Assembly: GCA_910585195.1 (NCBI GenBank)
Contig: CAJUCX010000009.1
Span: forward strand, 43-64,042
Reading direction: 5' to 3'
Length of the DNA stretch: 64,000 nt
DNA from: an uncultured Christensenellaceae bacterium
GTDB lineage: Bacteria > Bacillota > Clostridia > Christensenellales > CAG-314
Shown: piece after piece, positions 3,610-59,616 of the stretch
Layout of the letters: the number at the start of each line of letters is the position of its first letter
How positions within the stretch are numbered: position 1 is the stretch's first letter
Translations under genes and position numbers: made by a program
The notes under the pieces: model-generated
Told to the model about the DNA's origin: nothing
What the model saw: the letters and a program-made list of their open reading frames with translations, nothing else
Database searches by the model: none

Positions 3610-3634
3610 CAAAAAACCTGCACATGCAGGTTTT
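3605..3634 (-). terminator. Rho-independent terminator of mgtE
   Basis: Minus-strand RNA UAAAACCUGCAUGUGCAGGUUUUUUGUUGU, a GC-containing hairpin directly after the stop codon followed by a U-tract. Confidence 0.7.
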
Positions 3635-5159
3635 ATGTCAACAGCGCCACGGCAATATTGCAATAAATAATCAAAGACAATGCGTCGACGATGGTTGTTA
3701 TAAACGGGCTTGCTACAACTGCAGGGTCAAGATGGCATTTTTTTGCCAACAACGGCAGCGTACAGCCGATTACTTTGGCTATAACAACCGTAATGAACAT
3801 TGCCAAACAAACTACAAAGGCAATTAGTAAGTCGTTGTAGAGTTGATTTATGAGCATCAATTTTGCAAAGCAGGCAATAGATAATGTGGCACCAAGCAAA
3901 ACGGAAACGCGAATTTCTTTCCATAATACTTTTAATATGTCTTTGAATGCAACTTCGTTTAATGCAAGCCCGCGAATGATAGTAACAGAAGCTTGACTTC
4001 CCGCGTTGCCGCCTGTGTCCATAAGCATCGGTATACATGCAGTTAATGTTATGGAAAATGCTAATGTTGCTTCATATGACTCGATAATCATACCGGTAAA
4101 CGTTGCCGAGACCATAAGCAACATCAGCCACGGTACGCGGTTTAACCATAAGCGCCAAACGCTGGTTTTTAAGTAAGGCTTATCGTTAGGCGTAATTGCC
4201 GCCATTTTTGAAATATCTTCGGTGTTCTCTTCCTGCAAAATATCCATTGCATCGTCGATTGTGATAATACCGACCAAGCGATAATCTTTATCAACAACAG
4301 GCAATGCCAAAAAGTCGTATTTATCAAACTGACGGGCAACAACTTCCCTATCTGTATCCGTTTCTACTGAAACAAAGTTTGTTTCCATTATGGAGGAGAT
4401 TTTTGTATCCATATCGCTGAGCATCAAAGTTTTTGCGCTTACAACACCCAACAATTTGCGTTTTTCGTCTGTTACGTAACAGGTATAAACGGTTTCACTG
4501 TCGACACCCGTTCTGCGTATTTTATCAAATGCCTGCGAAACCGTAAATTCTGCTTTAAGACTTACGTATTCGACAGTCATTATACTGCCGGCGCTGTCTT
4601 TTGGATATTTGAGAATTTGATTTATATTTTCTCTTGTGCTTTTGTCCGCCTGCGCCAACATTCTTATTACGATATTTGCAGGCATATCTTCGATTATATC
4701 TACGGCATCGTCGACAAACAGTTCATCCATCATTATTTGTAATTCTTTGTCGCTGAAAGCCTTAATCAATATTTCTTGAAAGTGGCTGTCAAGTTCTACA
4801 AAAGTATCCGCTGCTATATCGCGCGGTAACAACCTGAAAACAAACGGCAACTGTCCTTCCGGTATTTGGGTAAAAAATATAGCAAGGTCGGTAGGCTCCA
4901 TTTCCGCAAGCAACGGTTTTAAGTCAAGAAAATATTTTTCTTCAAATAAACCTTCTGCGAGCAATTCACGGATGTTGATATCCATTTCGATAAAGGCTTC
5001 GAGTGCAAGGTTTTTTGGCAACAATCGAAATACGTCCACTAAGGAATCTTCCGGCAGCAAAGTTAAAAACTCTGCAATATCTTCTGCGGTTTCTTCGCTT
5101 AAAATATGTTTAAGTTCATCAATTTGATTGTTTTCAAGCAAAGTCAACAATTGTTTCAT
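3633..5159 (-). CDS. mgtE: Magnesium transporter MgtE
   Basis: 508 aa with an N-domain, tandem CBS region, and C-terminal TM domain with the MgtE-typical DTGGNAGSQ motif. Preceded by an M-box and SD AGGAGGGG. Confidence 0.92.
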   Translation of the reverse strand: MKQLLTLLENNQIDELKHILSEETAEDIAEFLTLLPEDSLVDVFRLLPKNLALEAFIEMDINIRELLAEGLFEEKYFLDLKPLLAEMEPTDLAIFFTQIPEGQLPFVFRLLPRDIAADTFVELDSHFQEILIKAFSDKELQIMMDELFVDDAVDIIEDMPANIVIRMLAQADKSTRENINQILKYPKDSAGSIMTVEYVSLKAEFTVSQAFDKIRRTGVDSETVYTCYVTDEKRKLLGVVSAKTLMLSDMDTKISSIMETNFVSVETDTDREVVARQFDKYDFLALPVVDKDYRLVGIITIDDAMDILQEENTEDISKMAAITPNDKPYLKTSVWRLWLNRVPWLMLLMVSATFTGMIIESYEATLAFSITLTACIPMLMDTGGNAGSQASVTIIRGLALNEVAFKDILKVLWKEIRVSVLLGATLSIACFAKLMLINQLYNDLLIAFVVCLAMFITVVIAKVIGCTLPLLAKKCHLDPAVVASPFITTIVDALSLIIYCNIAVALLT

Positions 5160-5181
5160 TTACCCCTCCTTTGGCAGGACG

Positions 5182-5218
5182 AAAAAAGACCTTGCCAAAG
5201 CACAAACAATGACAAGGT
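5182..5218 (-). terminator. Expression-platform terminator of the M-box riboswitch
   Basis: Minus-strand RNA ACCUUGUCA-loop-UGGCAAGGU (9 bp) followed by CUUUUUUC, located between the M-box aptamer and the mgtE SD. Confidence 0.75.
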
Positions 5219-5237
5219 TAAACAACAAGTTTAATAT

Positions 5238-5382
5238 TTCATCGTTCAAGCTTTAGCATCACAGGGCAGTGAAATTGCATTAGGTTACGCCTTGTTTTCG
5301 ACATAGCCTGCTGACCAACTCAAAGTGTCTCCACCTCTCTGCGGCAGCAATCCGTATCCCTGTGGTAGCCTTACCTACCGAA
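5238..5382 (-). promoter_or_regulatory. M-box (ykoK leader) Mg2+ riboswitch aptamer
   Basis: Minus strand reads GGTAGGTAAGGCTACCACAGGGATACGGATTGCTGCCGCAGAGAGG...GGTCAGCAGGCTATGTCGAAAACAAGGCG...CTGCCCTGTGATGCTAAAGCTTGAACGATGAA. This matches my recollection of the B. subtilis mgtE M-box (GTTAGGTGAGGCTCCTGTATGGAGATACGCTGCTGCC...GTGCTAAAGCTCTACGATTGAAG). It sits upstream of mgtE. Confidence 0.9.
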
Positions 5383-5401
5383 TTTTTTACTTACATATAT
5401 T

Positions 5402-17443: not shown

Positions 17444-17824
17444 TTAACACCTGTTCATATGCAAAAAAATATCTTTGGCAAGGTCTGCAAATTTATCGAC
17501 TTCGGTCTGATTGTTTTCCGTGCTGATTAATTGCACCTTATCGCAAGTAACTATAAGAAAGCCTATCGGTGTAATAGACGCGCCGCCGCCGGATGCCCCT
17601 GCAAATTGATTTATTGTTCCGTTTGACATAATGCCGGGTTTCTTTCCGCCGTATTCTCCGCCGCCGGCGGCAAAACCAAACGATACTTGCGATATAGGCA
17701 AAATCGTACAGCCGTCGGGTGTTACGAATGGTTTTCCTATTACAGAATCTGCATCAGTAAGCGCTTTCAGATGATAACTCATACCGTCGACGATTTCTTT
17801 AATTTTATTTTGAGTTGCTTCCAT
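17444..17824 (-). CDS. ytfJ: Sporulation protein YtfJ (GerW family)
   Basis: 126 aa. VIGKPFVTPDGCTILPISQVSFGFAAGGGEYG matches the YtfJ/GerW signature. SD GGAG 7 nt upstream of the ATG at 17824. Confidence 0.85.
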   Translation of the reverse strand: MEATQNKIKEIVDGMSYHLKALTDADSVIGKPFVTPDGCTILPISQVSFGFAAGGGEYGGKKPGIMSNGTINQFAGASGGGASITPIGFLIVTCDKVQLISTENNQTEVDKFADLAKDIFLHMNRC

Positions 17825-18291
17825 AAATATACTCCGAATGACGTTATTATTCTAAATATAATGTCTGCAATTGAAGAACAAAATATTCCTTCCGCTGAGA
17901 TGAGTTTTTGGTTGTAGGCATTTTGAAAGTAAACATAAAATTTATCTTGATATATTTGACGGCAAATTGTAACAACGCTGTTAATTGCAGATAAAAAGCA
18001 AGCGGTCTGTCGGAAATCAAAAATAAACATTATGCAAGCGGTTTTTAATTTGAACGCTTTTTTTATATTGATTTTTTTATTTTTGAAACTTACTTCCAAA
18101 GGTTTTTTGTTTTTTCCGTCAATAATTTTTACGCCGTCAATATAAAAATATTTGGTAATTATCTTTACAAAATCAAACAGTTTCACTTGTAAAGATAAAT
18201 GTTTTTTGACAAAATCAACCGAGAGTCCGAAATAAAATTTAAGCGGGCAAAACAACAAAAAAATTATCAATAAAAAAAACAATGCCAACAT
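17779..18291 (-). CDS. DUF2953-like membrane protein (YtfI-like, sporulation associated)
   Basis: 170 aa with an N-terminal TM helix. It sits immediately upstream of ytfJ, as ytfI does in B. subtilis. The family assignment rests on context and architecture only. Confidence 0.5.
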   Translation of the reverse strand: MLALFFLLIIFLLFCPLKFYFGLSVDFVKKHLSLQVKLFDFVKIITKYFYIDGVKIIDGKNKKPLEVSFKNKKINIKKAFKLKTACIMFIFDFRQTACFLSAINSVVTICRQIYQDKFYVYFQNAYNQKLISAEGIFCSSIADIIFRIITSFGVYLWKQLKIKLKKSSTV

Positions 18292-21852: not shown

Positions 21853-22443
21853 TTAACAAGACAATAAAATGGGTTTTAGAATTACGAAAATTAAAATACA
21901 CTCTGCAAGTGCCAAAATAACGCAAAGAAATGCCAAGAATATAATGAAGTCTTTTGAATTATTTTTTATGCAAATATTATTACAGTAATAGTAAGATGAA
22001 ATTATCGCAATTACCAATAATAAGGCAAGCTGTTGCAGTGAAAAAATCAAAAGCACAAACAAAATCGCAATTATTGAAAAAGTGGCTAAAAGCACTTTTA
22101 CCGAGCATAAAAACGCTATGCCCCTAATTAAAATGAGCAGATAACCCAACCAAAAAGTAAATTTATTTTGCGACAATAAAATAAATATCACGGAAAACAC
22201 TACAAGAGTTAATAAAAATCTCCAAAGCGCCCCAAAAAAATTGCCCATATAAAATAAATCTATAAACCAATTTATCGAGCTATTAAAAAAAATCAACGTG
22301 CTTGCATTGGAAAACAAAATCCCCAGAATTATTCCAAGCAGAAAGGTTGCAACGTAAGATATTGCAACCCATAAGTTTCTTTTGAGATAATATATAGCGT
22401 CAAAAAGATTGTTTTTAATGTTCTGTATTATACCGTTAAACAT
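21853..22443 (-). CDS. Polytopic membrane protein, possibly SpoIIM/DUF95-like
   Basis: 196 aa with ~5-6 hydrophobic helices and no recognisable catalytic motif. Size, topology and position next to spoIVB only suggest SpoIIM-like. Confidence 0.3.
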   Translation of the reverse strand: MFNGIIQNIKNNLFDAIYYLKRNLWVAISYVATFLLGIILGILFSNASTLIFFNSSINWFIDLFYMGNFFGALWRFLLTLVVFSVIFILLSQNKFTFWLGYLLILIRGIAFLCSVKVLLATFSIIAILFVLLIFSLQQLALLLVIAIISSYYYCNNICIKNNSKDFIIFLAFLCVILALAECILIFVILKPILLSC

Positions 22444-26626: not shown

Positions 26627-26693
26627 AATTCCCTCCGCAGTAAGTAATTATACAATATTATTTATAATTATTCAACTTAATTTATAAAAAATA

Positions 26694-26738
26694 TGCAAAT
26701 TTACAAACTAATAAACTATTGTATATTGTAAATTTGCA
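26694..26738. repeat. Perfect 13-bp inverted repeat (probable AT-rich dxs terminator and/or operator upstream of nadK-argR-recN)
   Basis: tgcaaatttacaa (26694-26706) and ttgtaaatttgca (26726-26738), 19-nt spacer. On the minus strand it is flanked by T-runs. Each arm is itself a 10/12 palindrome, TG(C/T)AAATTT(A/G)CA. Confidence 0.6.
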
Positions 26739-26756
26739 AAAAAATAAAGGGTTAAA

Positions 26757-28571
26757 TTACCCTTTATTTTCTATTATACTTATAATATTTTCAACATTAA
26801 AGCCGTTTTCGTACAACTGTTCTTCTATTGATGCGTGTTTTACGAATTTATCTTTAACGGCAATTATTTTTATATCAATATTTAAATTATTTTCACTTGC
26901 AAATAGAGAAATTTTTTCACCCAGTCCGCCGTATATTTGATTTTCTTCCAACACAATCCACTTTTTATCCTTAGAACGCGCTTTCAATATATTTTCGTCA
27001 AGTGGTTTTACAAACCTGGTGTTGATAATATTTATTTTTTTGTCGTAATGCAGCGCCGCATTTTGCGCAAGTTTTATCATATTTCCGCCGACGGCAAATA
27101 TAGAAATGTCTGAGTCGCAATTTGCAATATATTCCCAAGCGAACGGCACAAATTCCGTATCTTGGTACATATCGTCGGTTTCTTTTGGATATCTTATTGC
27201 CAAAGGCGCATTATACTCTGCGGCAAAACTCAAAGCCTTTTTTAGTTCGTTGGTATCTTTAGGCGCAATGACCGTCATATTCGGTATTGTAGTAAGAAAA
27301 CTTAAATCAAACAATCCTTGATGTGTTTCTCCGTCGGCACCAACAAACCCTGCCCTGTCTATACAAAAAACTACGGGTAAATTATCTATACATACGTCGT
27401 GTAAAATTTGGTCATATGCTCTTTGTAGAAACGTAGAGTAAATTGCTACAAACGGTTTCATTCCGCTCTTTGCCAAGCCGGCGGCAAAAGTTACTGCGTG
27501 TTCTTCTGCAATGCCTACGTCAAAAAATCTGTCTTTATGTTTTTCCGCAAAACAATCGAGCCCCGTGCCGTTTGACATTGCGGCGCAAACTGCGCAAATT
27601 TTATCGTTATTGTCGGCAAGTTCCGTAAGAGTTTTGCCAAATGTTTTTGAGTAAGAATAATTTTTCGGTTGGCAGTCTTTACCGTAAATCCCGTGAAATT
27701 TTTCCGGATTTTGCTCGGCTTCTTTGTATCCCTTACCCTTTTGAGTTACTATATGCAACAAGATAGGACGAGAAAGTTCTTTTTTAATGGATGCAAGAAT
27801 TTTTATGAGTTTTTTAAGGTCATTGCCGTTAAACGGACCGATATATTTTACGCCAAAATTGCTGAAAAACGTATTGCTGCCAAACAAAGATTTCAAGAAA
27901 TTTTTTGTGGCGCGGCAAAACTTAACTATAAATTTACCTATAAGCGGAATTGCCGAGAAAAATCTCGTTAAAAAGTATTTGAACTTATTATAACCGTTTT
28001 TAAGACGCAATCTAGATAAAGAAAGCGAAACGCCGCCTACGTTTTTTGAAATAGACATATCGTTGTCGTTTAGAATGACAAGCATATTTTTCTTGTCTAT
28101 ATTATTTAATGCTTCATATGCCATTCCGCCGGTCAAAGCCCCGTCGCCTATAACAGAAATTACGTTGTACGATTTTTTTTGAAGGTCGCGCGCTTCGCAC
28201 ATACCCAAACCTGCTGAAATTGACGTGCTTGCATGTCCCGTCAAAAACGCATCGGCATTGCTCTCTTTTGGGTTAGAAAAACCGCTCAGCCCACCGTTTT
28301 TGCGTAACGTTTTTAATTCGTCTTTGCGCCCTGTAAGAATTTTATGTATATAACTCTGATGACCGACGTCCCAAATTATTTTGTCTTGCTCGTCAAAAAC
28401 GTAGTGCAATGCAACCGTCAATTCTACAATGCCTAAATTTGAGGCAAGGTGCCCGCCGGTTTCCAAAACCGTGTCTAAAAGAAATTGTCTGATTTCTTGG
28501 CACAGTATTTTTAATTGATTTATATTAAGTTTTTTAAGGTCGTCCAAACCTTTAATACTTTCCAAATACAT
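26757..28571 (-). CDS. dxs: 1-deoxy-D-xylulose-5-phosphate synthase
   Basis: 604 aa. GGHLASNLG, thiamine-PP motif GDGALTGGMAYEALN, DVGIAEEHAVTFAAG. Confidence 0.95.
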   Translation of the reverse strand: MYLESIKGLDDLKKLNINQLKILCQEIRQFLLDTVLETGGHLASNLGIVELTVALHYVFDEQDKIIWDVGHQSYIHKILTGRKDELKTLRKNGGLSGFSNPKESNADAFLTGHASTSISAGLGMCEARDLQKKSYNVISVIGDGALTGGMAYEALNNIDKKNMLVILNDNDMSISKNVGGVSLSLSRLRLKNGYNKFKYFLTRFFSAIPLIGKFIVKFCRATKNFLKSLFGSNTFFSNFGVKYIGPFNGNDLKKLIKILASIKKELSRPILLHIVTQKGKGYKEAEQNPEKFHGIYGKDCQPKNYSYSKTFGKTLTELADNNDKICAVCAAMSNGTGLDCFAEKHKDRFFDVGIAEEHAVTFAAGLAKSGMKPFVAIYSTFLQRAYDQILHDVCIDNLPVVFCIDRAGFVGADGETHQGLFDLSFLTTIPNMTVIAPKDTNELKKALSFAAEYNAPLAIRYPKETDDMYQDTEFVPFAWEYIANCDSDISIFAVGGNMIKLAQNAALHYDKKINIINTRFVKPLDENILKARSKDKKWIVLEENQIYGGLGEKISLFASENNLNIDIKIIAVKDKFVKHASIEEQLYENGFNVENIISIIENKG

Positions 28572-28573
28572 AA

Positions 28574-29158
28574 TTAGTCTTTCTTAAACACAGACAGTGT
28601 TTTTGCGACAAAAAATATAATTTTGTTTGATTTTGACATTGCGTACGATTTGCCCAGTGCTTTGCCTGAAACCATAAGTGCGGCAATAACGGCACTGAAC
28701 AATACGCTGATGAATATAGAACCATTGTTTACAAACTGCATCAATACTATAGCGCCGCCGCAAGCACCGCTGACTATGCCGCAAATATCACCGATTATGT
28801 CCGCGCATACCGACGATACTTTTTCTGCATTTTTGACGAGTTTAACAGCCATTTTTGCACCCTTTACTTTGCGTGCCGACATAGATAAAAACGGCTCTAT
28901 ATCGCAAGCGGTTACGGCAGTGCCTATCATATCGAAGAATATCGAAATCAATATGATGATTATTATCAAAACGTATGCAATTACCAAATTTGTATTGCCG
29001 AGTACAAGCTCCGACAATAGACTGAACACGAATGATAAAAAAAGCGTTATAATAAGAGCATACAAAGGCCACAAATTTTTCTTTTTAGCCTTTTTATGCT
29101 TTTCGTCTTCTTTTTTTTGTTTTTGTATAGGTTGTTGCTCGTCTGAATTGTGTTTCAA
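28574..29158 (-). CDS. oapA: OLE-associated membrane protein OapA-like (4-TM, basic N-terminus)
   Basis: ~194 aa with no ATG start. The likely start is TTG at 29158, 6 nt after GAGG (29168-29165); the track ORF uses TTG at 29170. Four hydrophobic helices and a Lys-rich N-terminus (KQKKEDEKHKKAKKK). The stop is 2 nt before the dxs start, immediately 3' of the OLE-like RNA. Confidence 0.75.
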   Translation of the reverse strand: MKHNSDEQQPIQKQKKEDEKHKKAKKKNLWPLYALIITLFLSFVFSLLSELVLGNTNLVIAYVLIIIIILISIFFDMIGTAVTACDIEPFLSMSARKVKGAKMAVKLVKNAEKVSSVCADIIGDICGIVSGACGGAIVLMQFVNNGSIFISVLFSAVIAALMVSGKALGKSYAMSKSNKIIFFVAKTLSVFKKD

Positions 29159-29180
29159 AATTAACCTCAAAAAAATAAAA

Positions 29181-29760
29181 CAGGTGGTGGTAAATTAGGT
29201 AAACCTTACGGCATAGGTTCAGTAGGATTTCCCTGCAAGATACTTCCCGTCGCCGTAGAAGCAGTTTCCTTTTGAATCTTGCATCGCGCCGTTGCCGTGC
29301 GTGAAACTGAATCGCCACTTAGTCCGTACTATAATCCCTAAAATACCTGAAATACAGCCTAGAAGATTTCCTTAACAAAGACCTAAACATCTAGCCTCTT
29401 TTGCAACACATATTTCATCCCGCAATCACCTTATTCCGTTCGCCAACGAAACAAAGGTGTGTTCGGGAATCCCTATGAAATCACTCAAGGCAGGCTACAC
29501 TGTACACAGCAAAATTACCGCATAGCAGGTTAACCTTATTCAGTAACAAGACAACGCCCTGCCACCGAGATAAGCCTCCACGGAAATTGGGAATCGGTCG
29601 TATGCCATTACAACTTACCCAAAAACCTTAACTTCCAGCATCAGCCCCTGTTTGGGCAACAAAAGCCAACACAAGAAACTTCATCGATATGCCCTTTGAC
29701 GATTTTTTACTCCCGTCTTGGATGCATAGGTGTTTGACTAGGATACTGCACCACCAGTTT
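29181..29760 (-). ncRNA. OLE (ornate, large, extremophilic) RNA
   Basis: ~580-nt ORF-poor, visibly GC-richer segment in a tightly packed operon. Nested helices are readable: closing helix 29183-29189 / 29749-29755 (GGUGGUG/CACCACC), 29234-29241 / 29276-29283 (8 bp), 29427-29432 / 29454-29459, 29489-29494 / 29558-29563. The context ispA-[RNA]-4TM protein-dxs-nadK-argR-recN, with nusB-folD-xseAB upstream, is the published OLE/oapA neighbourhood. Confidence 0.85.
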
Positions 29761-29766
29761 CTAATT

Positions 29767-29795
29767 ATTTTAACACATCTTTACAAAATTATCAA
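29767..29795 (-). promoter_or_regulatory. Candidate sigmaA promoter immediately upstream of the OLE RNA
   Basis: Minus strand: TTGATA (29795-29790), 17 nt ending in TGT, TAAAAT (29772-29767). The predicted TSS near 29760 is just 5' of the closing helix. Confidence 0.5.
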
Positions 29796-29805
29796 ATTAC
29801 TGATA

Positions 29806-30639
29806 TTATATTTTTCGCGATATGTTATATTTACACAGTTCTGTAAAAAACTCGCAGTGTTCGAATATTTTTACACTTTCTGTTGCAATAAAATTGTATT
29901 CTTCTATTTTAACTTTCGTTTCTTCTTTTCCCAGTAAATTGGTATAACTTAAATTTTTGTCTGAGTCCGAATCAATCAAATCGTCCGCCGCCTGAAATGC
30001 TTTGCCGAAATTTTCGGCAAAAGTTTGCAATGCTTCAAACTGATTTATGCTGCCGTTGCAATAAATGCAAACAGCGCCGACGCAAGCGGAAATAAGTTTT
30101 GAAGTTTTGTTTTCCGTCAAGAAATCCAAAGTTTCAAAATCGTTTACTTTGTTCTCGTCTATATCGACAGCCTGACCGCCAATCATACCGCCTATTCCGG
30201 AGCAATTAAAAATAAACTTAATTGCGTTGAAATATTCTTGTGAATATTTGCCGTCTAGCAAAATTTCCGCCGCGAGATTAAGCAAACCGTCGCCCGCAAG
30301 CACCGCAACCGCCTCATTAAATTTTTTATGGCAAGACGGCTGTCCTCTGCGGAAATCATCGTCGTCCATACAAGGCAAATCGTCGTGTATTAAAGAATAC
30401 GTGTGTATCATTTCGATAGCGACTGCAATTCTATCGATATTTTCATCGTCTTTATCAAACAGTTTTGACGTCTGGTATACCAACGCGGGACGGAGTCTTT
30501 TTCCGCCGACCGTAAGACTGTATTCAATCGCTTGATTTACTTTGTTGCAGGGCAATGCTTTGATTATTTTTTGCAAGTTTGCTTCAACTCTGTCGCAAGA
30601 TTGTTTTAATGCCGTTTCAAAATCAGTCATTGTTTTCAT
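29806..30639 (-). CDS. ispA: Farnesyl diphosphate synthase (polyprenyl synthetase family)
   Basis: 277 aa. First DDxxD motif region LIHDDLPCMDDDDFRRG and second motif FQAADDLID. Confidence 0.92.
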   Translation of the reverse strand: MKTMTDFETALKQSCDRVEANLQKIIKALPCNKVNQAIEYSLTVGGKRLRPALVYQTSKLFDKDDENIDRIAVAIEMIHTYSLIHDDLPCMDDDDFRRGQPSCHKKFNEAVAVLAGDGLLNLAAEILLDGKYSQEYFNAIKFIFNCSGIGGMIGGQAVDIDENKVNDFETLDFLTENKTSKLISACVGAVCIYCNGSINQFEALQTFAENFGKAFQAADDLIDSDSDKNLSYTNLLGKEETKVKIEEYNFIATESVKIFEHCEFFTELCKYNISRKI

Positions 30640-33308: not shown

Positions 33309-33644
33309 TCAGGAAAACTCAACGTCGACAACGTGAACGTTTACGTCCTTAACCTTAAAGTTTGTTGCCGTTTCAAGTTCGTTTTTAATAACCTGCTGAA
33401 CTTTGTATGCAATTTCTCTGACGCTTTCGGAAAATCTTACCTTAACGTAAACGTCAATGTAAATTAAATCCGAAACGCTTTCGACTCTTATGCCTTGATT
33501 GCGTCTACTGTTGACGGAGCCTTTTTTTGCCGTAGACAACTCTACGCCGTCAATCTTATCCAACGAAAATCTGACAATAGGTTCGATGATGTCGCTGTTG
33601 TATACTACTTTGCCCGAATCACTGGATTTAGAAACAATTTTCAT
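33309..33644 (-). CDS. Asp23/Gls24 family envelope stress (alkaline shock) protein
   Basis: 111 aa. VVYNSDIIEPIVRFSLDKIDGV ... VNVHVVDVEF is typical of Asp23/DUF322. Conserved position upstream of nusB. Confidence 0.85.
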   Translation of the reverse strand: MKIVSKSSDSGKVVYNSDIIEPIVRFSLDKIDGVELSTAKKGSVNSRRNQGIRVESVSDLIYIDVYVKVRFSESVREIAYKVQQVIKNELETATNFKVKDVNVHVVDVEFS

Positions 33645-33702
33645 AAATACTTACTCCTGTATGATGATTATATCATACAAAAAGCATAATTACAACAATA
33701 AA

Positions 33703-34179
33703 TTATTTTGTTGACAATATTTTTACCAAGTCTGACGATACGTTTGTTTGACTCTTTATCGTGTTGTAAATTTTTGAAGTGTCTTCTCTAGTCAGTTCGT
33801 CGGTTTTTACCACTACGTTAATGTTGTCATTTGTAAGCCCTACGCTTACCACAACGTCTTCATAACCTTTTGCTTTAAGCAAACTTTCAAGTAGCAATTC
33901 CTTTTCCATAACTTCTACAAGTTTCAACTTTTGGTTGATTGCCGTTTGTCTTGCGTCTGCAAATTCTTCGCCTTCCATTGCAATAACCGAGTCTAAATAC
34001 AAAACTTCCTGATTGCGTTCGCTCTGTCTGGTTTGACGATAAGTTGTAAAGAAACTTGCAGTAGCCGTAGACGCGTTGTCTGTATTTTTGTTGTCAAGCA
34101 ACGTAAAGTTTAACACAACCGCAACAGCAAGAACCAGCACCATAATTGATAATACCAGAATCTTTTTCTTCTTTGACAT
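33703..34179 (-). CDS. spoIIIAH: Stage III sporulation protein AH
   Basis: 158 aa. N-terminal TM then a YscJ/FliF-like soluble domain. Last gene of an eight-gene spoIIIA operon. Confidence 0.8.
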   Translation of the reverse strand: MSKKKKILVLSIMVLVLAVAVVLNFTLLDNKNTDNASTATASFFTTYRQTRQSERNQEVLYLDSVIAMEGEEFADARQTAINQKLKLVEVMEKELLLESLLKAKGYEDVVVSVGLTNDNINVVVKTDELTREDTSKIYNTIKSQTNVSSDLVKILSTK

Positions 34180-34194
34180 AAAAAACCTCCCTTT

Positions 34195-34692
34195 TTACGA
34201 CCTCTTAAATACTTCTATTTTTCCATTAGGCACTTTCAAAAGTGCTTGAACGGCTCTTATAATTTCCAGTCTTACCGAAGTATCGCCGGCACCGTCTGCC
34301 ACGATGATTATGCCTTGAATTTCAGGCATTTTTTCTTTCAGTAAAACAGGTTTACCCGACACCAAAGTTAAAGTGTTTTTTTCCGTAACGGTACTTCCTT
34401 GTGTAACGGTTTCCGTCGTATATGCATATTCTTGTTCTATACCGCCTGCAAAACTAATCACAATGCTTGCTTTGCCGACACCGTCGATATTTGATATCGT
34501 TGTTTCAATTTTATTTTGCAAAGTGTTTACATATTCCGAAAAACTGTATTCCGACTGATTATCTTTTGCCGAACTTTGTCCGAAACTGCCGAAGAACACC
34601 AACAGAACTATTGCTGCAAGTATAAGTGCAATTACGATTTCAATATTTTTTATGCCTTTCAATCTCTTAAAAATACTCTTTTTTTCACTCAT
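34195..34692 (-). CDS. spoIIIAG: Stage III sporulation protein AG
   Basis: 165 aa. N-terminal TM. C-terminal GIIIVADGAGDTSVRLEIIRAVQALLKVPNGKIEVF matches the AG signature. Confidence 0.85.
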   Translation of the reverse strand: MSEKKSIFKRLKGIKNIEIVIALILAAIVLLVFFGSFGQSSAKDNQSEYSFSEYVNTLQNKIETTISNIDGVGKASIVISFAGGIEQEYAYTTETVTQGSTVTEKNTLTLVSGKPVLLKEKMPEIQGIIIVADGAGDTSVRLEIIRAVQALLKVPNGKIEVFKRS

Positions 34693-35171
34693 AAAAACAC
34701 CACGTTTTCGTCTGAAATATCAAGTAAATTTATCGTAATGCTCAAAACTTTTTCTTTAATATTTATATTCTTATCCGAGCCTACTATTACTGAATTTTTG
34801 ACGTTAATAAAAATTTTTTCTATATTAAATTTCACGTCGGCTTTGTAACTTATTTCAACCTCTACGTTGTCTATTCCGTTTGTTTTATATTCCTTCAATA
34901 ACTCATCTTTAACGACTGCCGCGCGCTCCTGCATAAGGTTTTCTATAAACGCAGTGTCAATAACTCCCGCCTGTTCGTTTTTAAGTACCCCTCCGATGTC
35001 TATATCTCCGTTAAACAATGAAGGTATCGGCAAAGCAATTACAAAAACTGTAATTACCGCAAAAACGCTTTTGATGTATTTATTTGTTTGCCCTTCCGGC
35101 AAAATTATATCGACTATCAAAGTCAATATGACTATGCCGACTATTGACAAAACCCACGCACTGAAATTCAT
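34689..35171 (-). CDS. spoIIIAF: Stage III sporulation protein AF
   Basis: 160 aa. Two N-terminal TM helices (WVLSIVGIVILTLIVDIILPEG). Operon position. Confidence 0.85.
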   Translation of the reverse strand: MNFSAWVLSIVGIVILTLIVDIILPEGQTNKYIKSVFAVITVFVIALPIPSLFNGDIDIGGVLKNEQAGVIDTAFIENLMQERAAVVKDELLKEYKTNGIDNVEVEISYKADVKFNIEKIFINVKNSVIVGSDKNINIKEKVLSITINLLDISDENVVFL

Positions 35172-35182
35172 AATTCACACCG

Positions 35183-36382
35183 TTAAAAAAATGCATTCGA
35201 AGTAAAAATCAACAACATAACGCAAATAAAATACATAAATGCTACGGCAAGTATGGCTACAATAAGCATATTTACGCTTTTTGCAATGCCCGTAAGAAAG
35301 GACGTAATACGACTGTCGGTTATGGGCTCAACAACGGCGGCTACAAATTTCAGCCCCCAACATACGCCCAAAATTTGCAAAACAGGCATAAGTATCGTGC
35401 ACACAAGCAGCAATAACCCCGCAACACCTACGGAATTTTTAATTAAAACACTGCTTGCCAAAATCAAATCGAACCCGTCTGCCAAATAACCGCCTAAAAT
35501 AGGTATATAACTTTTTGTGGCAAACTTTGCCGCCCTTATAGATACGCCGTCAAATGCTCCTCCTGTTAAGCCCTGTATCGATAAAAATGCCGTGAATACG
35601 GTAAACGTTACCACTAAAATCGTAGTAGAACTGCTCTTGAAAAAATCAGTAAGTTTGCTTAACTTTACGTTTTTAGACAAATTGCTTACTACGGAAAAAA
35701 CAAGAGTAAATATAAACAGCGGCAAAACGATGTTTGTTACGATTTCTATAACTCCGCCTGACAATAATGCGACGGCAGGTTGATATACCTGTACGCTTAC
35801 CGTGCCGCCCACCCCTGCCATTAACGTAAGTAAAATAGGAAAAGCAACATTCATTTGGCTTTTGAGCAAGTTTATAGTTCCTTTTGCGGTATCCAGCAAA
35901 TTTACAACGCATACCAGAGTTAAAACTACCACGATAGAAAAGCATACGAAGAATATAATTTGCCCTGTAGACTCCGACATAATGCCTGACTTCATTTGCG
36001 AAATCAATCCGCACAAAATTGAAATCACCGCTATACTGGCAAGAAGCGGAACAATTTTAAGCAACTCACTGAATAATAATTTGAAAAATGCTTCCAAAAA
36101 ACTTCCGCTGTCTTCAATAAATTTTCCGTCAAGAATATCTACAACCTTATCTTGAAAACTGCTGTTGCCGAATATTTCGATACTATCAACGCCCAACTCT
36201 TGCAGCAGTCTGTCAAGTTCTTCCATGTCAAGCATGTCCAACTGATTTTTTATATTTTCATCCAACTGCCTGAAAATTTCGTCTTCTGAATTTTCTGCCG
36301 CGTATACTGTTGTCGGCAATATTACGATTGACAGCACGCAACACAGCAATATTATGAAAGTTAATTTGAAAAAATTTTTCAC
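35183..36382 (-). CDS. spoIIIAE: Stage III sporulation protein AE
   Basis: Polytopic membrane protein with a signal-like N-terminus. The probable start is GTG 36382, overlapping the spoIIIAD stop as GTGA. The track ORF to 36505 would overlap AD by 127 nt. Confidence 0.85.
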   Translation of the reverse strand: MKNFFKLTFIILLCCVLSIVILPTTVYAAENSEDEIFRQLDENIKNQLDMLDMEELDRLLQELGVDSIEIFGNSSFQDKVVDILDGKFIEDSGSFLEAFFKLLFSELLKIVPLLASIAVISILCGLISQMKSGIMSESTGQIIFFVCFSIVVVLTLVCVVNLLDTAKGTINLLKSQMNVAFPILLTLMAGVGGTVSVQVYQPAVALLSGGVIEIVTNIVLPLFIFTLVFSVVSNLSKNVKLSKLTDFFKSSSTTILVVTFTVFTAFLSIQGLTGGAFDGVSIRAAKFATKSYIPILGGYLADGFDLILASSVLIKNSVGVAGLLLLVCTILMPVLQILGVCWGLKFVAAVVEPITDSRITSFLTGIAKSVNMLIVAILAVAFMYFICVMLLIFTSNAFF

Positions 36383-36765
36383 GGAAGTATCTCCACTATC
36401 AACGCCAGCAAACTGTTTATTATAGGCAATGCCAAAATCATAATTATTACTTTTCCTGCAAACAAGATTTTGTCGCCCACGCTTTTGCATCCGGAATCCG
36501 CGCAAACGTTTGAGGCAAATTCCGTTACATAACCGATGCCGATAATTTTAAGCACGGTTGTAAACAGTCCTTCGGCTATTCCGCTTATGCCCGCAATGTT
36601 GTAAAACGACGCTACTACTTCGTATAATTCGTCTACAACCATTATTATGATTATGACGCCAGCTGCAACGCCCAGCAAAATTGCAAGTTCCGGCTTTGTT
36701 TCTTTCAACAGTGAAATAAGCATTGCGGCAATTATGCCGATTGCCACAATTTGCAGTATATTCAT
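36379..36765 (-). CDS. spoIIIAD: Stage III sporulation protein AD
   Basis: 128-aa, 4-TM small membrane protein (MNILQIVAIGIIAAMLISLLKETKPE...). Operon position. Confidence 0.88.
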   Translation of the reverse strand: MNILQIVAIGIIAAMLISLLKETKPELAILLGVAAGVIIIIMVVDELYEVVASFYNIAGISGIAEGLFTTVLKIIGIGYVTEFASNVCADSGCKSVGDKILFAGKVIIMILALPIINSLLALIVEILP

Positions 36766-36767
36766 AT

Positions 36768-36962
36768 CTAAAATGCAAACAAGGCTTTAATCGTATCAAA
36801 CAACTGAACCAACATATCTAGCACGATAAGCAATACCAAAATTAAGCCGGCAAGCGTAGATAGCGTTGCGATTTCGTCTTTGTCCGATTTTTTTAATATA
36901 GTATTTATCATTGCCGTAAGTATGCCTATTGCGGCAATCTTAAAGATTATGTCTATGCCCAT
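36768..36962 (-). CDS. spoIIIAC: Stage III sporulation protein AC
   Basis: 64 aa, two TM helices. IFKIAAIGILTAMINTILKKSDKDE is typical of AC. Confidence 0.88.
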   Translation of the reverse strand: MGIDIIFKIAAIGILTAMINTILKKSDKDEIATLSTLAGLILVLLIVLDMLVQLFDTIKALFAF

Positions 36963-36969
36963 TTTGACC

Positions 36970-37467
36970 TCATAAACAAAGAATTGCTACAAACAATCCT
37001 AAAAATACACCTAATTTACCGTACAAATTACCTTTTGTTTTTGAATCTGCTTTTGCACTTGCTGACAATCCGTCAAAAATCTTTTCGAATCCCGAAATTT
37101 GTTCAGTCTGGTTTTTGCAGTCGCTGCTTCCCAATACAGAAAAAAATTCGCATATAACGGCAGCCTCGTTTTCTGCAAGAAAAAACAGCTGATGCAAATC
37201 TTTGTTTTTAATAATGGGAAAATCATTGTTTTTCAATGAAGTTTGCGCCGTTTTGCAAATATATAAAAAATCTTTGCCGCCGTTTTGTTTGCTTTTTTCT
37301 ATAACGTCATACAACTTTAATTGAAAATAACTTATTTGGCTCTTAACGTTGCCGCAAAAAAGCAGTAAATCGTCATATAAACGAACTCTCCGTCGATAGC
37401 CTTTTGTCAAACCGAAACCGATATATGAACTTCCGCATAAAATTACTACGCACAAAAGAATTTTCAT
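36970..37467 (-). CDS. spoIIIAB: Stage III sporulation protein AB
   Basis: 165 aa with N- and C-terminal TM helices flanking a GspF-like cytoplasmic domain. Operon position. Confidence 0.85.
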   Translation of the reverse strand: MKILLCVVILCGSSYIGFGLTKGYRRRVRLYDDLLLFCGNVKSQISYFQLKLYDVIEKSKQNGGKDFLYICKTAQTSLKNNDFPIIKNKDLHQLFFLAENEAAVICEFFSVLGSSDCKNQTEQISGFEKIFDGLSASAKADSKTKGNLYGKLGVFLGLFVAILCL

Positions 37468-38369
37468 CTGTCAAGCCTGCTAAATTTTTTGTCGTAAATT
37501 CCTACGACCTCGCCTATTTTTCTTTCATTTGACAAAATTACAAACCTGTCAAATATATCCAAGAAACTCGTTATAAAAGCGCTGTGCTTTATATCACATA
37601 TGTCTTGTCCATGTATCGTGCAAAAAAGTTTTACACCGCATTCGGAAACTTGTTTTAACTCTTCTAAGTCATTGCAGCATATTTCATCGCAAGCCAGTAC
37701 GTCGGGAGTCATGGTTCTTACGCCACACCTAAATGCAAATACCTTGTCCGCCATTGAAATTACGTCGCAAAAATTGCCCAAATTGTATTTTATTTTTCCT
37801 TCCGAACTGCCGGATATTTCATTGCGCTCATCGGCAATAAGTACGTTTGGCGGATTTTGCAAAAAAGACGTTTGATAAATTAAGTCGCGCAGAAACGTCG
37901 TTTTGCCTGCCCCCGGCTTGGACAATATCAACACGTTGGCGATAGGATTTGTTAAATGCGGTAACGCGTCTATACTGCAACCTTTGACTTCACGCGGTAT
38001 TCTGATATTGAGTGAAGATATTTCTTTGATAGATACGGAAATACCGTTTTCTATTACAAAAGTTCCGCACAACCCTATTCTGACGCCGTCAAACGCCGCC
38101 AAAAACCCTTTTGACAGTTGTTCGGCAAAACTATGCAAAGAATGCTGACACGCCGTCATAACGAAATTTTCCATATCTTTGTAAGAAACGCTTATCGCAT
38201 TTTTTACGTCGGCAGTTATTCCGTTTGCCGATAAAAAGTATTTTTTACCGTAATACAAAACCGTCGTCGGTCTGTTGGTACGCAGTCGAATTTCCTGCAA
38301 ATTTAATGAATTAAGACTGTCTATGGCTTGCGAAATTTCAACCGGCAAAGCGGCTTTCAAACTTTGCAT
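37464..38369 (-). CDS. spoIIIAA: Stage III sporulation protein AA (secretion-type ATPase)
   Basis: 301 aa. Walker A SKPGAGKTTFLRDL, Walker B-like LIADE. First gene of the operon. Confidence 0.9.
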   Translation of the reverse strand: MQSLKAALPVEISQAIDSLNSLNLQEIRLRTNRPTTVLYYGKKYFLSANGITADVKNAISVSYKDMENFVMTACQHSLHSFAEQLSKGFLAAFDGVRIGLCGTFVIENGISVSIKEISSLNIRIPREVKGCSIDALPHLTNPIANVLILSKPGAGKTTFLRDLIYQTSFLQNPPNVLIADERNEISGSSEGKIKYNLGNFCDVISMADKVFAFRCGVRTMTPDVLACDEICCNDLEELKQVSECGVKLFCTIHGQDICDIKHSAFITSFLDIFDRFVILSNERKIGEVVGIYDKKFSRLDR

Positions 38370-38475: not shown

Positions 38476-39036
38476 TTATTTTGCTCTTTCCATATATTCA
38501 CCGGTTCTCGTGTCAATACGTACAAAATCGCCTTCGTTTATAAACATAGGAACGAGTATTTCATATCCAGTTTCAAGCGTAGCAGGTTTTGTTGCATTTG
38601 TTGCAGTGTTGCCTGCAACGGCAGGCTCGCAAGAAGTAACTTGCAAAACTACGAAATTTTCCGGTTCTACCGAGAACGCTTCGCCCTTATAGAACTTAAC
38701 GAATACCTTCATATTTTCTTTTACAAAAGACAATGCTTCTTCAACTTGAGAATAGTTAAGCGGCAACTGTTCGTAAGTTTCGGTATCCATAAAGTAATAA
38801 AGTTCGCCGTCGGAATAAAGATATTCCATCTCTTTACTTTCAATATGAGCCCTTTCGTACTTATCGGACGGGTTGAAAGTTTTTTCAAGCACTGCGCCTG
38901 TAACTACGTTTTTAATCTTCGTTCTTACAAAAGCCGCGCCTTTGCCCGGTTTTACGTGTTGAAAATCAACAACAACATAAACGTTGCCGTCCATTTCGAA
39001 AGTTATGCCTTTTCTGAAATCTCCTGCTACTATCAT
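38476..39036 (-). CDS. efp: Translation elongation factor P
   Basis: 186 aa. [37 protein letters not shown] is a classic EF-P N-terminus. Confidence 0.96.
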
Positions 39037-44003: not shown

Positions 44004-46616
44004 TTATTCTTTTACTTCTTCGACAAGATATGCTTCAAATACGTCTCCGACCTTAATATCGTTGTAATTTTGGATTGAGACGCCGCATTCAAAACCTTGC
44101 GCAACTTCTTTAACGTCATCCTTAAAACGCTTCAAAGCCAAAATTTCGCCGTCATAAACGATTACATTGTCTCTGTACACTCTTACTTTGCAATTTCTAT
44201 TGATTTTGCCGCTGGTTACGTATGCGCCAGCAACGGAACCGACGCCGGTAATTCTAAACACTTCGCGTACTTCAACCTGACCTAATATAGTATCTCTGTA
44301 TTTAGGCGCAAGCATACCTTTCATTGCGCTTGTAATATCGTCCACCATATCGTAAATGATATTGTAAAGTCTTATGTCAACCTGCTCTCTCTCTGCTGCA
44401 GTTCTTGCCTGAGCGTCTGCCCTGACGTTAAAGCCTATTACGATAGCGCCGGAAGCTTTTGCAAGCATTATGTCGGTTTCGTTTATCGCGCCTACGCCAC
44501 CGTGAATAGGATTGACTTTTACTTCTTCATTCGAAATCTTTTCAACAGTACCTTTCAATGCTTCCAACGAGCCTTGAACGTCTGCCTTGATAATAAGATT
44601 GAGAGTCTTTAACTGACCTTCGCTGATTTTGCCAAATATATCGTCCAATGATACTTTTGAAGATGCATTAAGCTTGTCAAGACGCTCTTTATTCTTTCTT
44701 TCGTCTGCAACTTGTTTTGCAAGTTTTTCGTCAACGGCATTCATCATATCGCCTGCATTAGGCACATCTGAAAAGCCCAAGACTTCAACAGGCATTGACG
44801 GACCTGCCGTTTTGACGCTCTTGTTTTTGTCGTTAAACATAGCGCGGATTTTGCCGACCGCTGTACCGGCAACGACGTTGTCGCCAACGTGTAAAGTACC
44901 GTTTTGCACAAGTACCGTTGCAACGGGTCCGCGGCCTTTGTCAAGTTTTGCTTCTATTATTGTGCCCCTTGCACGTTTTGACGAGTTTGCTTTAAGTTCT
45001 TTAATTTCAGACACAAGCAACACCGCTTCGAGAAGTTTATCAAGACCCTCTCCCGTTTTAGCAGAAACAGGAACAAAAATAGAATCTCCGCCCCATTCTT
45101 CCGGCAAAATGCCGTGTTCGGTAAGTTGCTGTTTTACTCTGTCTTGATTTGCTTCAGGCTTATCTATCTTGTTGACTGCAACAACGATAGGCACTTCCGC
45201 CGCTTTTGCATGGTTTAACGCTTCTATGGTTTGCGGCATAACTCCGTCGTCTGCAGCAACAACCAATATTGCCACGTCGGTAACTTGGGCACCCCTTGCA
45301 CGCATTGCAGTAAACGCCGCGTGTCCCGGTGTGTCGATAAACGTAATAGGCTCGCCCTTTGCCTCTACGGTGTAAGCACCGATATGCTGCGTAATCCCTC
45401 CGGCTTCTCCCGCCGTTACGCTGGTTTTTCTTATAGCGTCAAGTAAGGAAGTTTTACCGTGGTCAACGTGTCCGAGAACGGTAACTATAGGGGGACGCTT
45501 TTCGTTATCTGCGATATTTCCGTCGTCATCCTCAAAAGAACTCATCATTACTTCTTCAAACGATTTGCTGAGTTCCAAAGTCAACTCCACACCGAAATTT
45601 GATGCAATGATTGCGGCATAATCGAAATCAACGGCATCGTTGATGGTTTTTATTATGCCTTCTTTGAAAAGCTGCTTAATAATTTCCGCAGCAGGTACGC
45701 CGATTTTTTCGCTCAAAACTTTAATTTGTACGTCTTGAGTGTTTACCACCGCTTTTTCTATTTTTACGGTTTCCTTTTTAACTTCCTGCTTTTTACTCTT
45801 TAATTTTCTGGTAACAAACTCATTGTCAAATTCGCTGATATTGTCTTGTGCAATATAGCCTTTTTTGAGCAATGCCTTTGTCGACATTTGTTTTTTAGAC
45901 TCTGATTTTTCAGGCGTTTTGTTTTTGTTTCCGAAATTTTTGCCTTGCTGTTCTTTTTGAATAACAGGCATATCACCGAAAGTTTTCGGTTTCGATTGTC
46001 TTTGCGCGGAAGGTCTTGCTGCTGCGTTATCTCCGTCCTTTTGTGCAAAGTTTTTATTGCGGTCAAACTGCTGACGCGGTTTGTTAGGGTCAAAAGGTTT
46101 ACGCTGTCCTTGCCCCTGCTGTCTGTTTTGATTGCCGTAAGCCCCGCCGCGTTGTTGCGTTTGAGTGGACGGCTTAGGCGGAAATCTGTCCGTAATAAAC
46201 TTTCTTACAATTTTGTTGCCCTTTTCGTCAATGAAAACTTTTTGGTCTTTTTGCGGTTGCGCAATCAACGGCTCTACGCGCGTGATTTCAATATTGACGG
46301 AACTTTTCGGTTTTTCGGACTCGCTTTTTTGTTTAGGTTCTTCACTTTCAACTACCGGTTTTACCGTCGTTTCTGTCTTTTCAACCTTTATTTCATTACC
46401 GGTTTTGTCTTCCTTTTTTTCCGCCGCTTTTAATTGCTCCGCAAATAATTTTTGTTTTTGCTCAACAGCCTGATTTATGTTATAAATCTTCTTTTTAACG
46501 CCTCTTACGTCCAAAAGCAGAGCGCTTGCTTCTTTGATAGTAGACGCTCTCATTGCTTTTAACGCATCAAAACTTTGGCTTGTTTGAGTGTTTTGTGTAA
46601 CGTTTTTAGTTGTCAA
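44004..46616 (-). CDS. infB: Translation initiation factor IF-2
   Basis: G-domain [21 protein letters not shown]. Lys/Gln-rich low-complexity N-terminal region. The likely start is TTG 46616, 7 nt after GGAGG, overlapping the ylxQ stop as TTGA. The track ORF starts at GTG 46634. Confidence 0.95.
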
Positions 46617-46936
46617 TTGACTACCTCCACACACTTGAAATCTTTGTCTGAATTTTGTAAAATGGCTTTGACTAAATTTTCATCAGTCAGTGCGATTATT
46701 TTTACTCCCTTTTTAGAAACTAATTCTTCAACGGGAATAGCAGATTCTATCAGTTGAATTTCTTTTTTTGCACAATAATGCTTAATTTCTTTTTTTGATT
46801 TTTCGCTCGCAGTTTTGCACAATAATACTAGCCCGGGTTTTTTCTTTGATACCAAAATATTATCTAAACCAAAAATAGCAGCACCTTTATTTATGGCAAA
46901 TCCTACATAACTTTTTATTTTAGAGTTCATCGGCAA
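46613..46936 (-). CDS. ylxQ: L7Ae-family RNA-binding protein YlxQ
   Basis: 107 aa. Position between ylxR and infB. GFAINKGAAIFG...LVLLCKTASEKSKK is typical of the L7Ae/YlxQ fold. Confidence 0.8.
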   Translation of the reverse strand: MPMNSKIKSYVGFAINKGAAIFGLDNILVSKKKPGLVLLCKTASEKSKKEIKHYCAKKEIQLIESAIPVEELVSKKGVKIIALTDENLVKAILQNSDKDFKCVEVVN

Positions 46937-54528: not shown

Positions 54529-55218
54529 TTAGTCTTTAATATCTCCAAATTTTCTTTCTCTCTTGTTAAAACTTGACAACATAAGCACAAACTGCTGCTC
54601 GTCAAAATCAGGCCACAATACGTCTGTAAAATACAATTCGGCATATGCGGCTTGATACAGCATAAAGTTTGACAAACGCAATTCTCCGCTTGTGCGCACT
54701 ATTAAATCCAAATCGGGTAATTGCTTATATAAATAACTTTCAAAAGTTGTTTTGTCTGCACAAGCAACTCCGTCTTTAAGCATAGCGTTTACCGCGTGTA
54801 TAATTTCATTTCTTCCGCCGTAGTTTATACATAAATTCAGCGTCAGAGACTTACAGTTTTTTGTTTTTGTTTCAACGGTTTTTATTGCGTCTGTTAAATC
54901 TTCGGGCAAACCATCGGAACTGCCGGAAACTACAACTCTTATGTCTTTCTTCAAAAAAGTGTCAATTTTTTTTAGATACTTTCTGGCAAGGTCAAACAAG
55001 TTGTCTACTTCTGCCTTAGGGCGCGAAATGTTTTCGGTAGACAAAACGTAAAGGCTGACGCACTGTATCCCGTATTTTTTTGATAAATCAATAACAGACT
55101 CTACGGTTTTAATGCCTGCACGATGCCCCTTGATACGCGGATAACCGCGCATTTTAGCCCAGCGACCGTTGCCGTCCATTATAAAACCTATATGTTTGGG
55201 TACAGTTGAAAATTCCAT
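54529..55218 (-). CDS. uppS: Isoprenyl transferase (undecaprenyl diphosphate synthase)
   Basis: 229 aa. HIGFIMDGNGRWA, IRTSGELRLSNFMLYQAAYAELYF. Confidence 0.95.
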   Translation of the reverse strand: MEFSTVPKHIGFIMDGNGRWAKMRGYPRIKGHRAGIKTVESVIDLSKKYGIQCVSLYVLSTENISRPKAEVDNLFDLARKYLKKIDTFLKKDIRVVVSGSSDGLPEDLTDAIKTVETKTKNCKSLTLNLCINYGGRNEIIHAVNAMLKDGVACADKTTFESYLYKQLPDLDLIVRTSGELRLSNFMLYQAAYAELYFTDVLWPDFDEQQFVLMLSSFNKRERKFGDIKD

Positions 55219-59541: not shown

Positions 59542-59616
59542 AGCCACCTCCATATAATTATAGTATCGGCTAACGAAGAGTTTTAATGTGAAAATTTCAT
59601 TTACAAAAATTACCAA

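Follow-up and report, generated by a model that had tools for sequence, protein, structure and literature searches.

Between ispA and dxs, in the 64-kb stretch of contig CAJUCX010000009.1 analyzed here (the window, 64,000 nucleotides (nt) from an uncultured Christensenellaceae bacterium), lies at 29760-29181 what is almost certainly an ordinary gene, of the full-length type, for the ornate, large, extremophilic (OLE) RNA, followed by oapA, the gene of its membrane-protein partner. NCBIfam and Pfam matches place the surrounding genes, all on the minus strand, in the order nusB-folD-xseA-xseB-ispA-[OLE]-oapA-dxs-nadK-argR-recN. This order had been proposed in an earlier, sequence-only reading of the same DNA and is confirmed; it matches the published context of OLE as well as the synteny found in our sample of other OLE loci.

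In a greedy map of the open reading frames (ORFs), the largest intergenic gap of the window falls at this very place (29171-29805, 635 nt), the runner-up being the 329 nt of an M-box leader. The only ORFs of at least 50 amino acids (aa) touching the gap encode 74 aa (29094-29318, minus strand) and 82 aa (29689-29937, plus strand), and neither matches a Pfam family; a gap of about 635 nt with nothing but short ORFs had been remarked on before, and the remark holds in both its parts. The G+C content across the element amounts to 0.42-0.45, compared with 0.381 for the window and 0.30-0.34 for the immediate flanks. The element is thus richer than both, as had been claimed, but the difference is modest and some coding stretches are equally rich. 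Finally, 29760-29181 folds with a minimum free energy of -192.3 kcal/mol (z = -3.83), a stability attained by none of 100 shuffled sequences, and the extensive folding that had been noted is therefore far beyond what shuffles give.

Scanning of the whole window with the Rfam 15 covariance models returned two above-threshold matches, one of which is to RF01071 (OLE) with 462 bits (E = 2e-132), the gathering score being 50. This match runs from end to end of the model (positions 1-616 of 616) and is not truncated, and its score falls inside the range of 434-469 bits obtained at five other OLE loci. The earlier identification as OLE, together with the covariance-model search proposed for it, is thereby borne out over the full length. 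The RNA itself probably has its ends near 29760 and 29181, which gives a predicted length of about 580 nt. Of the conserved bacterial RNAs that lack a known biochemical function, OLE is one of the largest, and since more than 2,800 representatives of this known family have been published, the presence of a copy in the window is of little surprise.

The comparative set was obtained by an exact-pattern scan of GTDB species genomes with the 5' motif GTGGTGCAGTATNCTAGTCA, which gave at least 120 loci. The 107 full-length OLEs among the matches listed were aligned by MAFFT with the window sequence (alignment A1, n = 108). One member of the set, L079 (3875-4719, plus strand, in a Clostridia metagenome-assembled genome from roe deer rectum), has an OLE extended to 845 nt by about 240 nt inserted in the P7 region; its score is nonetheless 468 bits, the insert matches no other Rfam family, and A1 holds just its first 715 nt. 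As regards the neighboring genes, 81 of 98 eligible loci have ispA upstream of OLE and 58 of 66 have dxs downstream of it, in all these cases on the OLE strand.

Measured against these homologs, the window copy is typical. Near-invariant nucleotides make up about a quarter of an OLE RNA; among the other 107 OLEs, conservation reaches 97% or more at 165 positions, and the window copy keeps every one of them, as it does 214 of the 215 positions conserved at the level of at least 90%. The copy had been described as compact, which its dimensions contradict: the Rfam span is 603 nt for a sample median of 611.5, the distance from one P1 strand to the other is 573 nt for a median of 581.5 (rank 40 of 108), helices P7, P8, and P9 measure 40, 29, and 98 nt for medians of 43, 31, and 98, and every substructure has a length at or near the sample median. 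Because its segment lengths lie near the median, the copy belongs to the full-length type and not to the reduced variants 1 or 2. The closest OLE among the matches listed is about 71% identical to it. Small differences are found in the hairpin between P10 and P12 (model positions 424-437), where four residues are deleted on each side and AUUUCA is left, the P10-P12 linker measuring 3-33 nt across the family, and at position 29274, which is a C while 92% of the A1 sequences have a U. The features of the element and of its flanking genes are collected in Table 1.

Table 1. Features of the OLE RNA gene, its predicted promoter and its flanking genes in the window.
Feature	Coordinates	Strand	Basis or remark
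ispA (farnesyl diphosphate synthase)	29806..30639	-	NCBIfam NF045485, 234 bits; stop TAA 29808-29806
Promoter-like site, sigma-A type, extended -10	29767..29795	-	consensus scan
OLE RNA gene	29168..29770	-	full Rfam RF01071 match
P1, 5' strand GGUGGU	29750..29755	-	pairs with 29188-29183
P2-like helix, 5' strand CAGU	29745..29748	-	pairs with GCUG 29358-29355; minimum-free-energy fold
P3/P3.1, 5' strand	29721..29736	-	pairs with 29391-29376
P4 hairpin, A-rich loop AGUAAAAA at 29711-29704	29698..29717	-	Rfam alignment
J4a/5 region	29679..29688	-	AUCGAU palindrome 29688-29683 and GAUGAAG, k-turn side; identical to invariant consensus
Rest of domain 1	29394..29678	-	Rfam consensus pairs and covariation
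P5, loop GCCCA 29657-29653	29678-29632	-	
P6, loop AUGGCA 29608-29603	29627-29582	-	
P7	29574-29535	-	
P8	29528-29500	-	
P9-P9.3	29491-29394	-	
P9.3 loop GGCG	29441..29444	-	A1 comparison
P3/P3.1, 3' strand	29376..29391	-	A1 pairing, RNAduplex, minimum-free-energy fold
Domain 2	29189..29373	-	Rfam pairs and covariation, helices 19-24 88-99% paired
P10	29373-29363	-	
P12-P15 multi-helix region	29347-29189	-	
P13, single-nucleotide bulge, GNRA loop GCAA 29295-29292	29304-29284	-	
P14/P14.1, GCGA loop 29253-29250	29283-29234	-	
P1, 3' strand ACCACC	29183..29188	-	A1 pairing and minimum-free-energy fold
oapA	28574..29158	-	TTG start, 194 aa; Pfam CNNM and phmmer homology
dxs	26757..28571	-	TIGR00204, 688 bits; starts 2 nt past the oapA stop

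Projected onto the window through the cmscan alignment, the Rfam consensus structure has 159 model pairs, 154 of which have both residues present, and 141 of these (91.6%) are canonical. In A1, the Rfam structure complemented by P1 is 86.9% paired, as compared with 70.2% after shuffling of the columns and 41-45% when the partner strands are slid by 1-3 columns; changes on both sides of a pair occur in 129 of the 160 pairs, and none of 500 shuffles reaches any of the observed measures. The check by covariation, which had been suggested together with the identification, therefore supports the consensus structure and the terminal helix alike. In the variable distal part of P9 alignment A1 is unreliable, so that the pairing of only 7-69% of helices 13-17 is uninformative there. 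Furthermore, 142 of 174 reference pairs also form in the unconstrained minimum-free-energy fold, which reproduces exactly P1, a P2-like CAGU/GCUG helix, and P3/P3.1.

P1 is absent from the Rfam structure and present in the current published model. Its six pairs are 98.6% paired across the 108 OLE RNAs, and its outermost pair, which lies outside the search pattern, covaries (G-C 66, A-U 33, G-U 4). The sequence-only reading had proposed a terminal helix of 7 base pairs (bp), six of which are those of the published P1; the seventh, G29749-C29189, competes with the consensus P12 pair G29347-C29189, and owing to this collision P1 was tested as a 6-bp helix. Three further helices had been put forward and fared unequally. 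The first, 29283-29276 with 29241-29234, belongs to the Rfam consensus in the P14 region, is 94% paired, and shows heavy covariation. The second, CACCUU/AAGGUG, contains the consensus pairing CACC/GGUG, but its other two pairs are off register by a one-nucleotide bulge. As for the third, GGCAGG 29563-29558 with CCUGCC 29494-29489, the strands are complementary but the pairing is not conserved: it is 49% paired in A1, a value matched by 500 of 500 shuffles and not superior to the slid controls, and it conflicts with P7 and P9, so this is chance complementarity.

The CAGU/GCUG helix, which is adjoined by the CUAG palindromes 29741-29738 and 29362-29359, we take by inference to be P2. Its columns are nearly invariant and the sole variable one (29358) can pair with U both as A and as G, so that covariation cannot test it. 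P3/P3.1, missing from the Rfam model, comprises in the window 14 bp with two mismatches. In A1, it is 81.7% paired against 61.6% in shuffled and 32-53% in slid alignments, with 393 double-change cells, and RNAduplex gives a better pairing than with shuffled partners in 108 of 108 sequences. This helix encloses P4-P9 and has been proposed to cross the membrane (PMC12265935; PMC12286853).

The loops and junctions to which dimer contacts and protein binding have been ascribed in other OLE RNAs are mostly preserved at the sequence level. The A-rich L4, L5 GCCCA, and L6 AUGGCA match the consensus, and U62 and A63-A65 of the P4 region are invariant in A1; L4 forms a dimer bridge in the structures determined by cryo-electron microscopy (cryo-EM) (PMC12286853). 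The AUCGAU palindrome lies near a mapped OapA site and GAUGAAG constitutes one side of the OapC k-turn (PMC12265935, PMC9723947, PMC12286853). Both putative k-turn strands of the window, GAUGAAG and GUGGAG (29581-29576), are identical to the consensus. The determinants of OapB binding are the GNRA loop of P13 and a single-nucleotide bulge (PMC7936274); the putative site in the window has the GCAA loop and, two or three nucleotides ahead of the loop according to the register, a bulge.

A predicted promoter with an extended -10 element, which had been noted before, precedes the element. It consists of a -35 box TTGATA (29795-29790), a 17-nt spacer, TG at 29775-29774, and a -10 box TAAAAT (29772-29767), starts 10 nt past the ispA stop, and ends 11 nt before P1, with a transcription start predicted near 29760. 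The placement is shared by most homologs, since an equivalent promoter-like site, whose -10 box ends 3-20 nt before P1, is found at 77 of 119 OLE loci, whereas a control position yields 6 and shuffles yield 9 +/- 3. The proximal OLE promoter of B. halodurans is active experimentally, with a start site at the foot of P1 (PMC3413148). No terminator-like site was found in 28400-30100, hence none between OLE and oapA, and oapA and dxs are for this reason probably co-transcribed with the RNA. P1 with the U-run that follows was considered as a conserved terminator and rejected as not general, T-runs after P1 being present at 36 of 108 loci against 20 of 107 at the control.

This arrangement raises the question of whether the structured stretch is a free-standing RNA at all or a cis-acting 5' leader, such as a riboswitch or an attenuator, that controls oapA-dxs. 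The stretch immediately precedes oapA on the same strand, no terminator-like site intervenes, and the oapA ribosome-binding site is within about 15 nt of P1. We nevertheless consider a leader very unlikely. An RNA of about 580 nt with some 25 helices exceeds by far, to our knowledge, any known leader. RF01071 is classified in Rfam as a family of the "Gene" type and not as cis-regulatory, and the U-tract after P1 is, as mentioned above, unconserved. Moreover, the OLE of B. halodurans is a single, stable (half-life of about 3 h) RNA of high abundance that is active from a distal locus as well (PMC3413148).

The gene that follows the free-standing RNA begins with TTG at 29158, 6 nt after a GAGG ribosome-binding site (29168-29165), a start that is also the one given by the NCBI annotation of GCA_948984165.1. 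A gene for a basic protein with four transmembrane segments, adjoining dxs, had been described here, and this holds: the 194-aa product has an isoelectric point of 9.56 (24 Lys and Arg versus 13 Asp and Glu) and about four hydrophobic spans (around residues 28-55, 57-87, 121-143, and 142-169), the N-terminal 35 residues of the 198-aa ORF contain 11 Lys or Arg, and the stop codon lies 2 nt before the dxs ATG at 28571. The protein matches the Pfam family CNNM (PF01595) with 32.0 bits for a cut-off of 28.4 over residues 68-196, and no other domain. An ORF homologous by phmmer follows OLE at 93 of the 98 other loci with downstream room, at a median of 28 nt past OLE, and an oapA homolog lies downstream of OLE in 101 of the 120 sampled loci. 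In the segment D124-I-I-G127-D128 (198-aa numbering), the two D residues and the G are shared by all 94 OLE-adjacent homologs, and the further invariant residues S134-G135, K170, and K174 are all present in the window protein. A DxxxD motif is distinctive of OapA (PMC11332333); by homology, motif, and CNNM match, the predicted 194-aa protein is an OapA. A search of the PDB by sequence gave nothing at E up to 1, no NCBIfam model matches the protein, and a single-sequence AlphaFold2 model (mean predicted local distance difference test 58.5, predicted template-modeling score 0.37) was too poor for a fold search. At one locus of the sample, L068, the first long ORF downstream of OLE (4744-5327) encodes 863 aa and, in contrast to the ORFs of the 93 loci just mentioned, has no phmmer similarity to OapA.

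One feature of the window OLE departs from its family in a way that may bear on function. The P9.3 loop is a self-complementary GGCC in 93 of the 108 OLE RNAs, while the window has GGCG, which is not self-complementary. Position 330, in P9.3, is one of two window deviations from columns conserved at about 90% or more, and GGCG at P9.3 is the only real deviation of this OLE. The base is also present in an NCBI contig (L121) identical to the window over 7.8 kb, and a scan of JGI metagenomes for the P9.3 stem of the window with a free loop gave no matches. Some non-GGCC OLEs carry other self-complementary tetramers; loops without a palindrome also occur in L004 (GGCG), L030 (GGCA), and L068 and L084 (both GGCU). 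The L9.3 palindrome is thus not family-defining, being absent in several members of the sample. L9.3 forms a kissing-loop dimer bridge in the cryo-EM structures of OLE.

Nothing speaks against the identification as OLE. Of the 154 consensus pairs, 13 are non-canonical in the window, and the GGCG loop may weaken one of the bridges that join the OLE dimer in the cryo-EM structures. A rival reading is that the locus holds a decaying, non-functional remnant of OLE in the reduced genome of a gut bacterium, an idea to which the metagenome-assembled, Clostridia-like source, the reduced OLE variants occurring in such lineages (PMC11332333), and the broken P9.3 palindrome lend themselves. Decay would hardly have spared every one of the 165 strongly conserved positions, all but one of the 215 conserved at the level of at least 90%, 91.6% of the pairs, and the length of the substructures, nor would it be expected beside a good promoter and an intact oapA with all its invariant residues, and we regard a remnant as slightly less probable still than a leader. 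That the region encodes one or more small proteins is effectively refuted already, in spite of the 74-aa and 82-aa ORFs overlapping it, since neither ORF matches a family, the substitutions among homologs keep base pairs and not reading frames, and the 82-aa ORF lies on the opposite strand and runs into ispA.

Taking the element as a full-length OLE RNA, its mode of action can be proposed from work on other species, namely the genetics and biochemistry of H. halodurans and the cryo-EM of the C. acetobutylicum and C. botulinum RNAs (PMC12265935, PMC11332333, PMC12286853, PMC7936274, PMC9723947, PMC3413148). By analogy, an OLE RNA of about 580 nt would have two sources, its own promoter and read-through from ispA, would be stable and abundant, and would fold into a domain 1 (P4-P9) and a domain 2 (P1, P2, and P10-P15) linked by P3/P3.1. 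It would form a homodimer through loop-loop bridges, and recent cryo-EM suggests that OLE may span the membrane as a dimer. OapA, a CNNM/MpfA-like putative transporter of divalent cations, would hold the RNA at the membrane, and the RNA would also bind OapB (through the P13 GNRA loop and bulge), OapC (through the k-turn at J4a/5), and bS21. In other species, loss of OLE sensitizes cells to Mg2+, cold, alcohols, and poor carbon sources, and the particle may likewise help this organism to withstand an excess of Mg2+, cold, short-chain alcohols, and a poor carbon supply. Our committed guess, which is speculation, is that OLE would provide the OapA transporter with a module for regulation or sensing and so replace the CBS and CorC domains that its all-protein relative MpfA carries.

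Among known systems, the closest are the full-length OLE RNAs of H. halodurans, C. acetobutylicum, and C. botulinum, with which the window copy shares P1-P15 and all highly conserved nucleotides, the sequences of L4, L5, L6, the P13 GNRA loop and bulge, the P14.1 GCGA loop, and the k-turn, as well as the proximal promoter, the downstream oapA, and the ispA...dxs neighborhood. It differs from them by the GGCG of P9.3, the P10-P12 hairpin reduced to AUUUCA, and the C at 29274. The reduced variants 1 and 2 are similar as to their hosts, uncultured Clostridia of the gut type known from metagenome-assembled genomes. However, in variant 1 the helices P7, P8, and P9 are shortened and the OapB site of P13 is often missing (PMC11332333), whereas the window has full-length P7-P9 and an intact P13 GNRA loop; variant 2 is devoid of P7 and P8 (PMC11332333), both of which the window keeps. 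The predicted partner protein resembles the OapA family in its size of about 200 aa, its four or so transmembrane helices, its basic N-terminal region, its DxxxD motif, and the position of its gene directly after ole (PMC11332333). It shares the above-threshold CNNM match with distant relatives, the CNNM domains of the MpfA and CorB Mg2+ transporters, but has neither CBS nor CorC domains. GOLLD and ROOL are, like OLE, large, highly structured, self-assembling noncoding RNAs of unknown function (PMC12286853); in contrast to OLE, they form nanocages and are phage-associated, with unrelated sequences and folds, and the Rfam 15 scan detected neither in the window.

The surroundings of the locus give an indication of the host. 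A complete spoIIIAA-AH operon, then a yqhY-like gene of the Asp23 family and nusB (33309-38369, minus strand), immediately precede the OLE cluster, with efp at 38476-39036, and downstream of recN lie spoIVB, ytfJ, scpA/scpB, and two paralogous genes for D-Ala-D-Ala carboxypeptidases. On account of this sporulation gene set, the organism is, judging by its genes, an endospore former. The window sequence agrees exactly with the NCBI metagenome-assembled genome GCA_948984165.1 and with a Logan assembly, and the closest relatives of its OLE and OapA among the matches listed come from gut and rumen Clostridia genomes. Two OLE contigs of the sample are labeled "Deltaproteobacteria bacterium" (L045) and "uncultured Bacteroides sp." (L114), and their OLEs look ordinary; cases of OLE outside the Bacillota are attributed in the literature to mis-binning or horizontal transfer.

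Another element of Mg2+ homeostasis is encoded within the same 64 kb as OLE and OapA. It is an M-box (Mg2+) riboswitch (RF00380, 111.6 bits, 5231-5389, minus strand) located directly upstream of a gene for an MgtE-type Mg2+ transporter (3633-5159, minus strand) with MgtE_N, CBS, and MgtE domains. By the published pattern, an OLE-bearing genome would have oapB (ybzG), oapC (ybxF), and rpsU and be devoid of mpfA. Genes for OapB and OapC were sought among the small ORFs of the window, and only a sub-threshold YlxQ-like protein was found. This ORF (46613-46936, minus strand), which lies between ylxR and infB in the order rimP-nusA-ylxR-[ORF]-infB-rbfA, had been offered as an OapC candidate. It remains below the thresholds of the L7Ae models (Pfam L7Ae, 20.4 versus 22.1 bits; NCBIfam L7Ae/YlxQ, 35 versus 77 and 18 versus 113) and gives no evidence for OapC; by its position, it is YlxQ and not OapC. 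Six minus-strand ORFs of 68-196 aa (36548-36799, 59401-59616, 63700-63987, 55218-55424, 17779-18291, and 21853-22443) have no Pfam or NCBIfam match, and some of them may not be genes. Between dxs and nadK, a spacer of 130 nt (26627-26756; G+C of about 0.23 in the surrounding 300 nt), unusually long for so packed a gene string, may hold an internal promoter or terminator.

The OLE of the window is a member of a family already known, of its commonest type, found by the standard model together with the standard partner gene, promoter, and neighbors, and it is typical in the respects measured. For annotation, a 635-nt gap that appeared empty becomes a named RNA gene and a "hypothetical" protein with four transmembrane segments becomes OapA; for the family, one more full-length OLE and one more sequence for comparative alignments are obtained, which add little to the question of function. 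Of minor weight is the single-base change that breaks the palindrome of P9.3, which laboratories working on OLE dimerization might use. That self-complementarity has been lost in this lineage, the L9.3 kissing-loop bridge being weakened or dispensable, is a rather improbable reading; were it true, the window OLE would show, as an experiment made by nature, whether dimerization and function require the arch-like third bridge.

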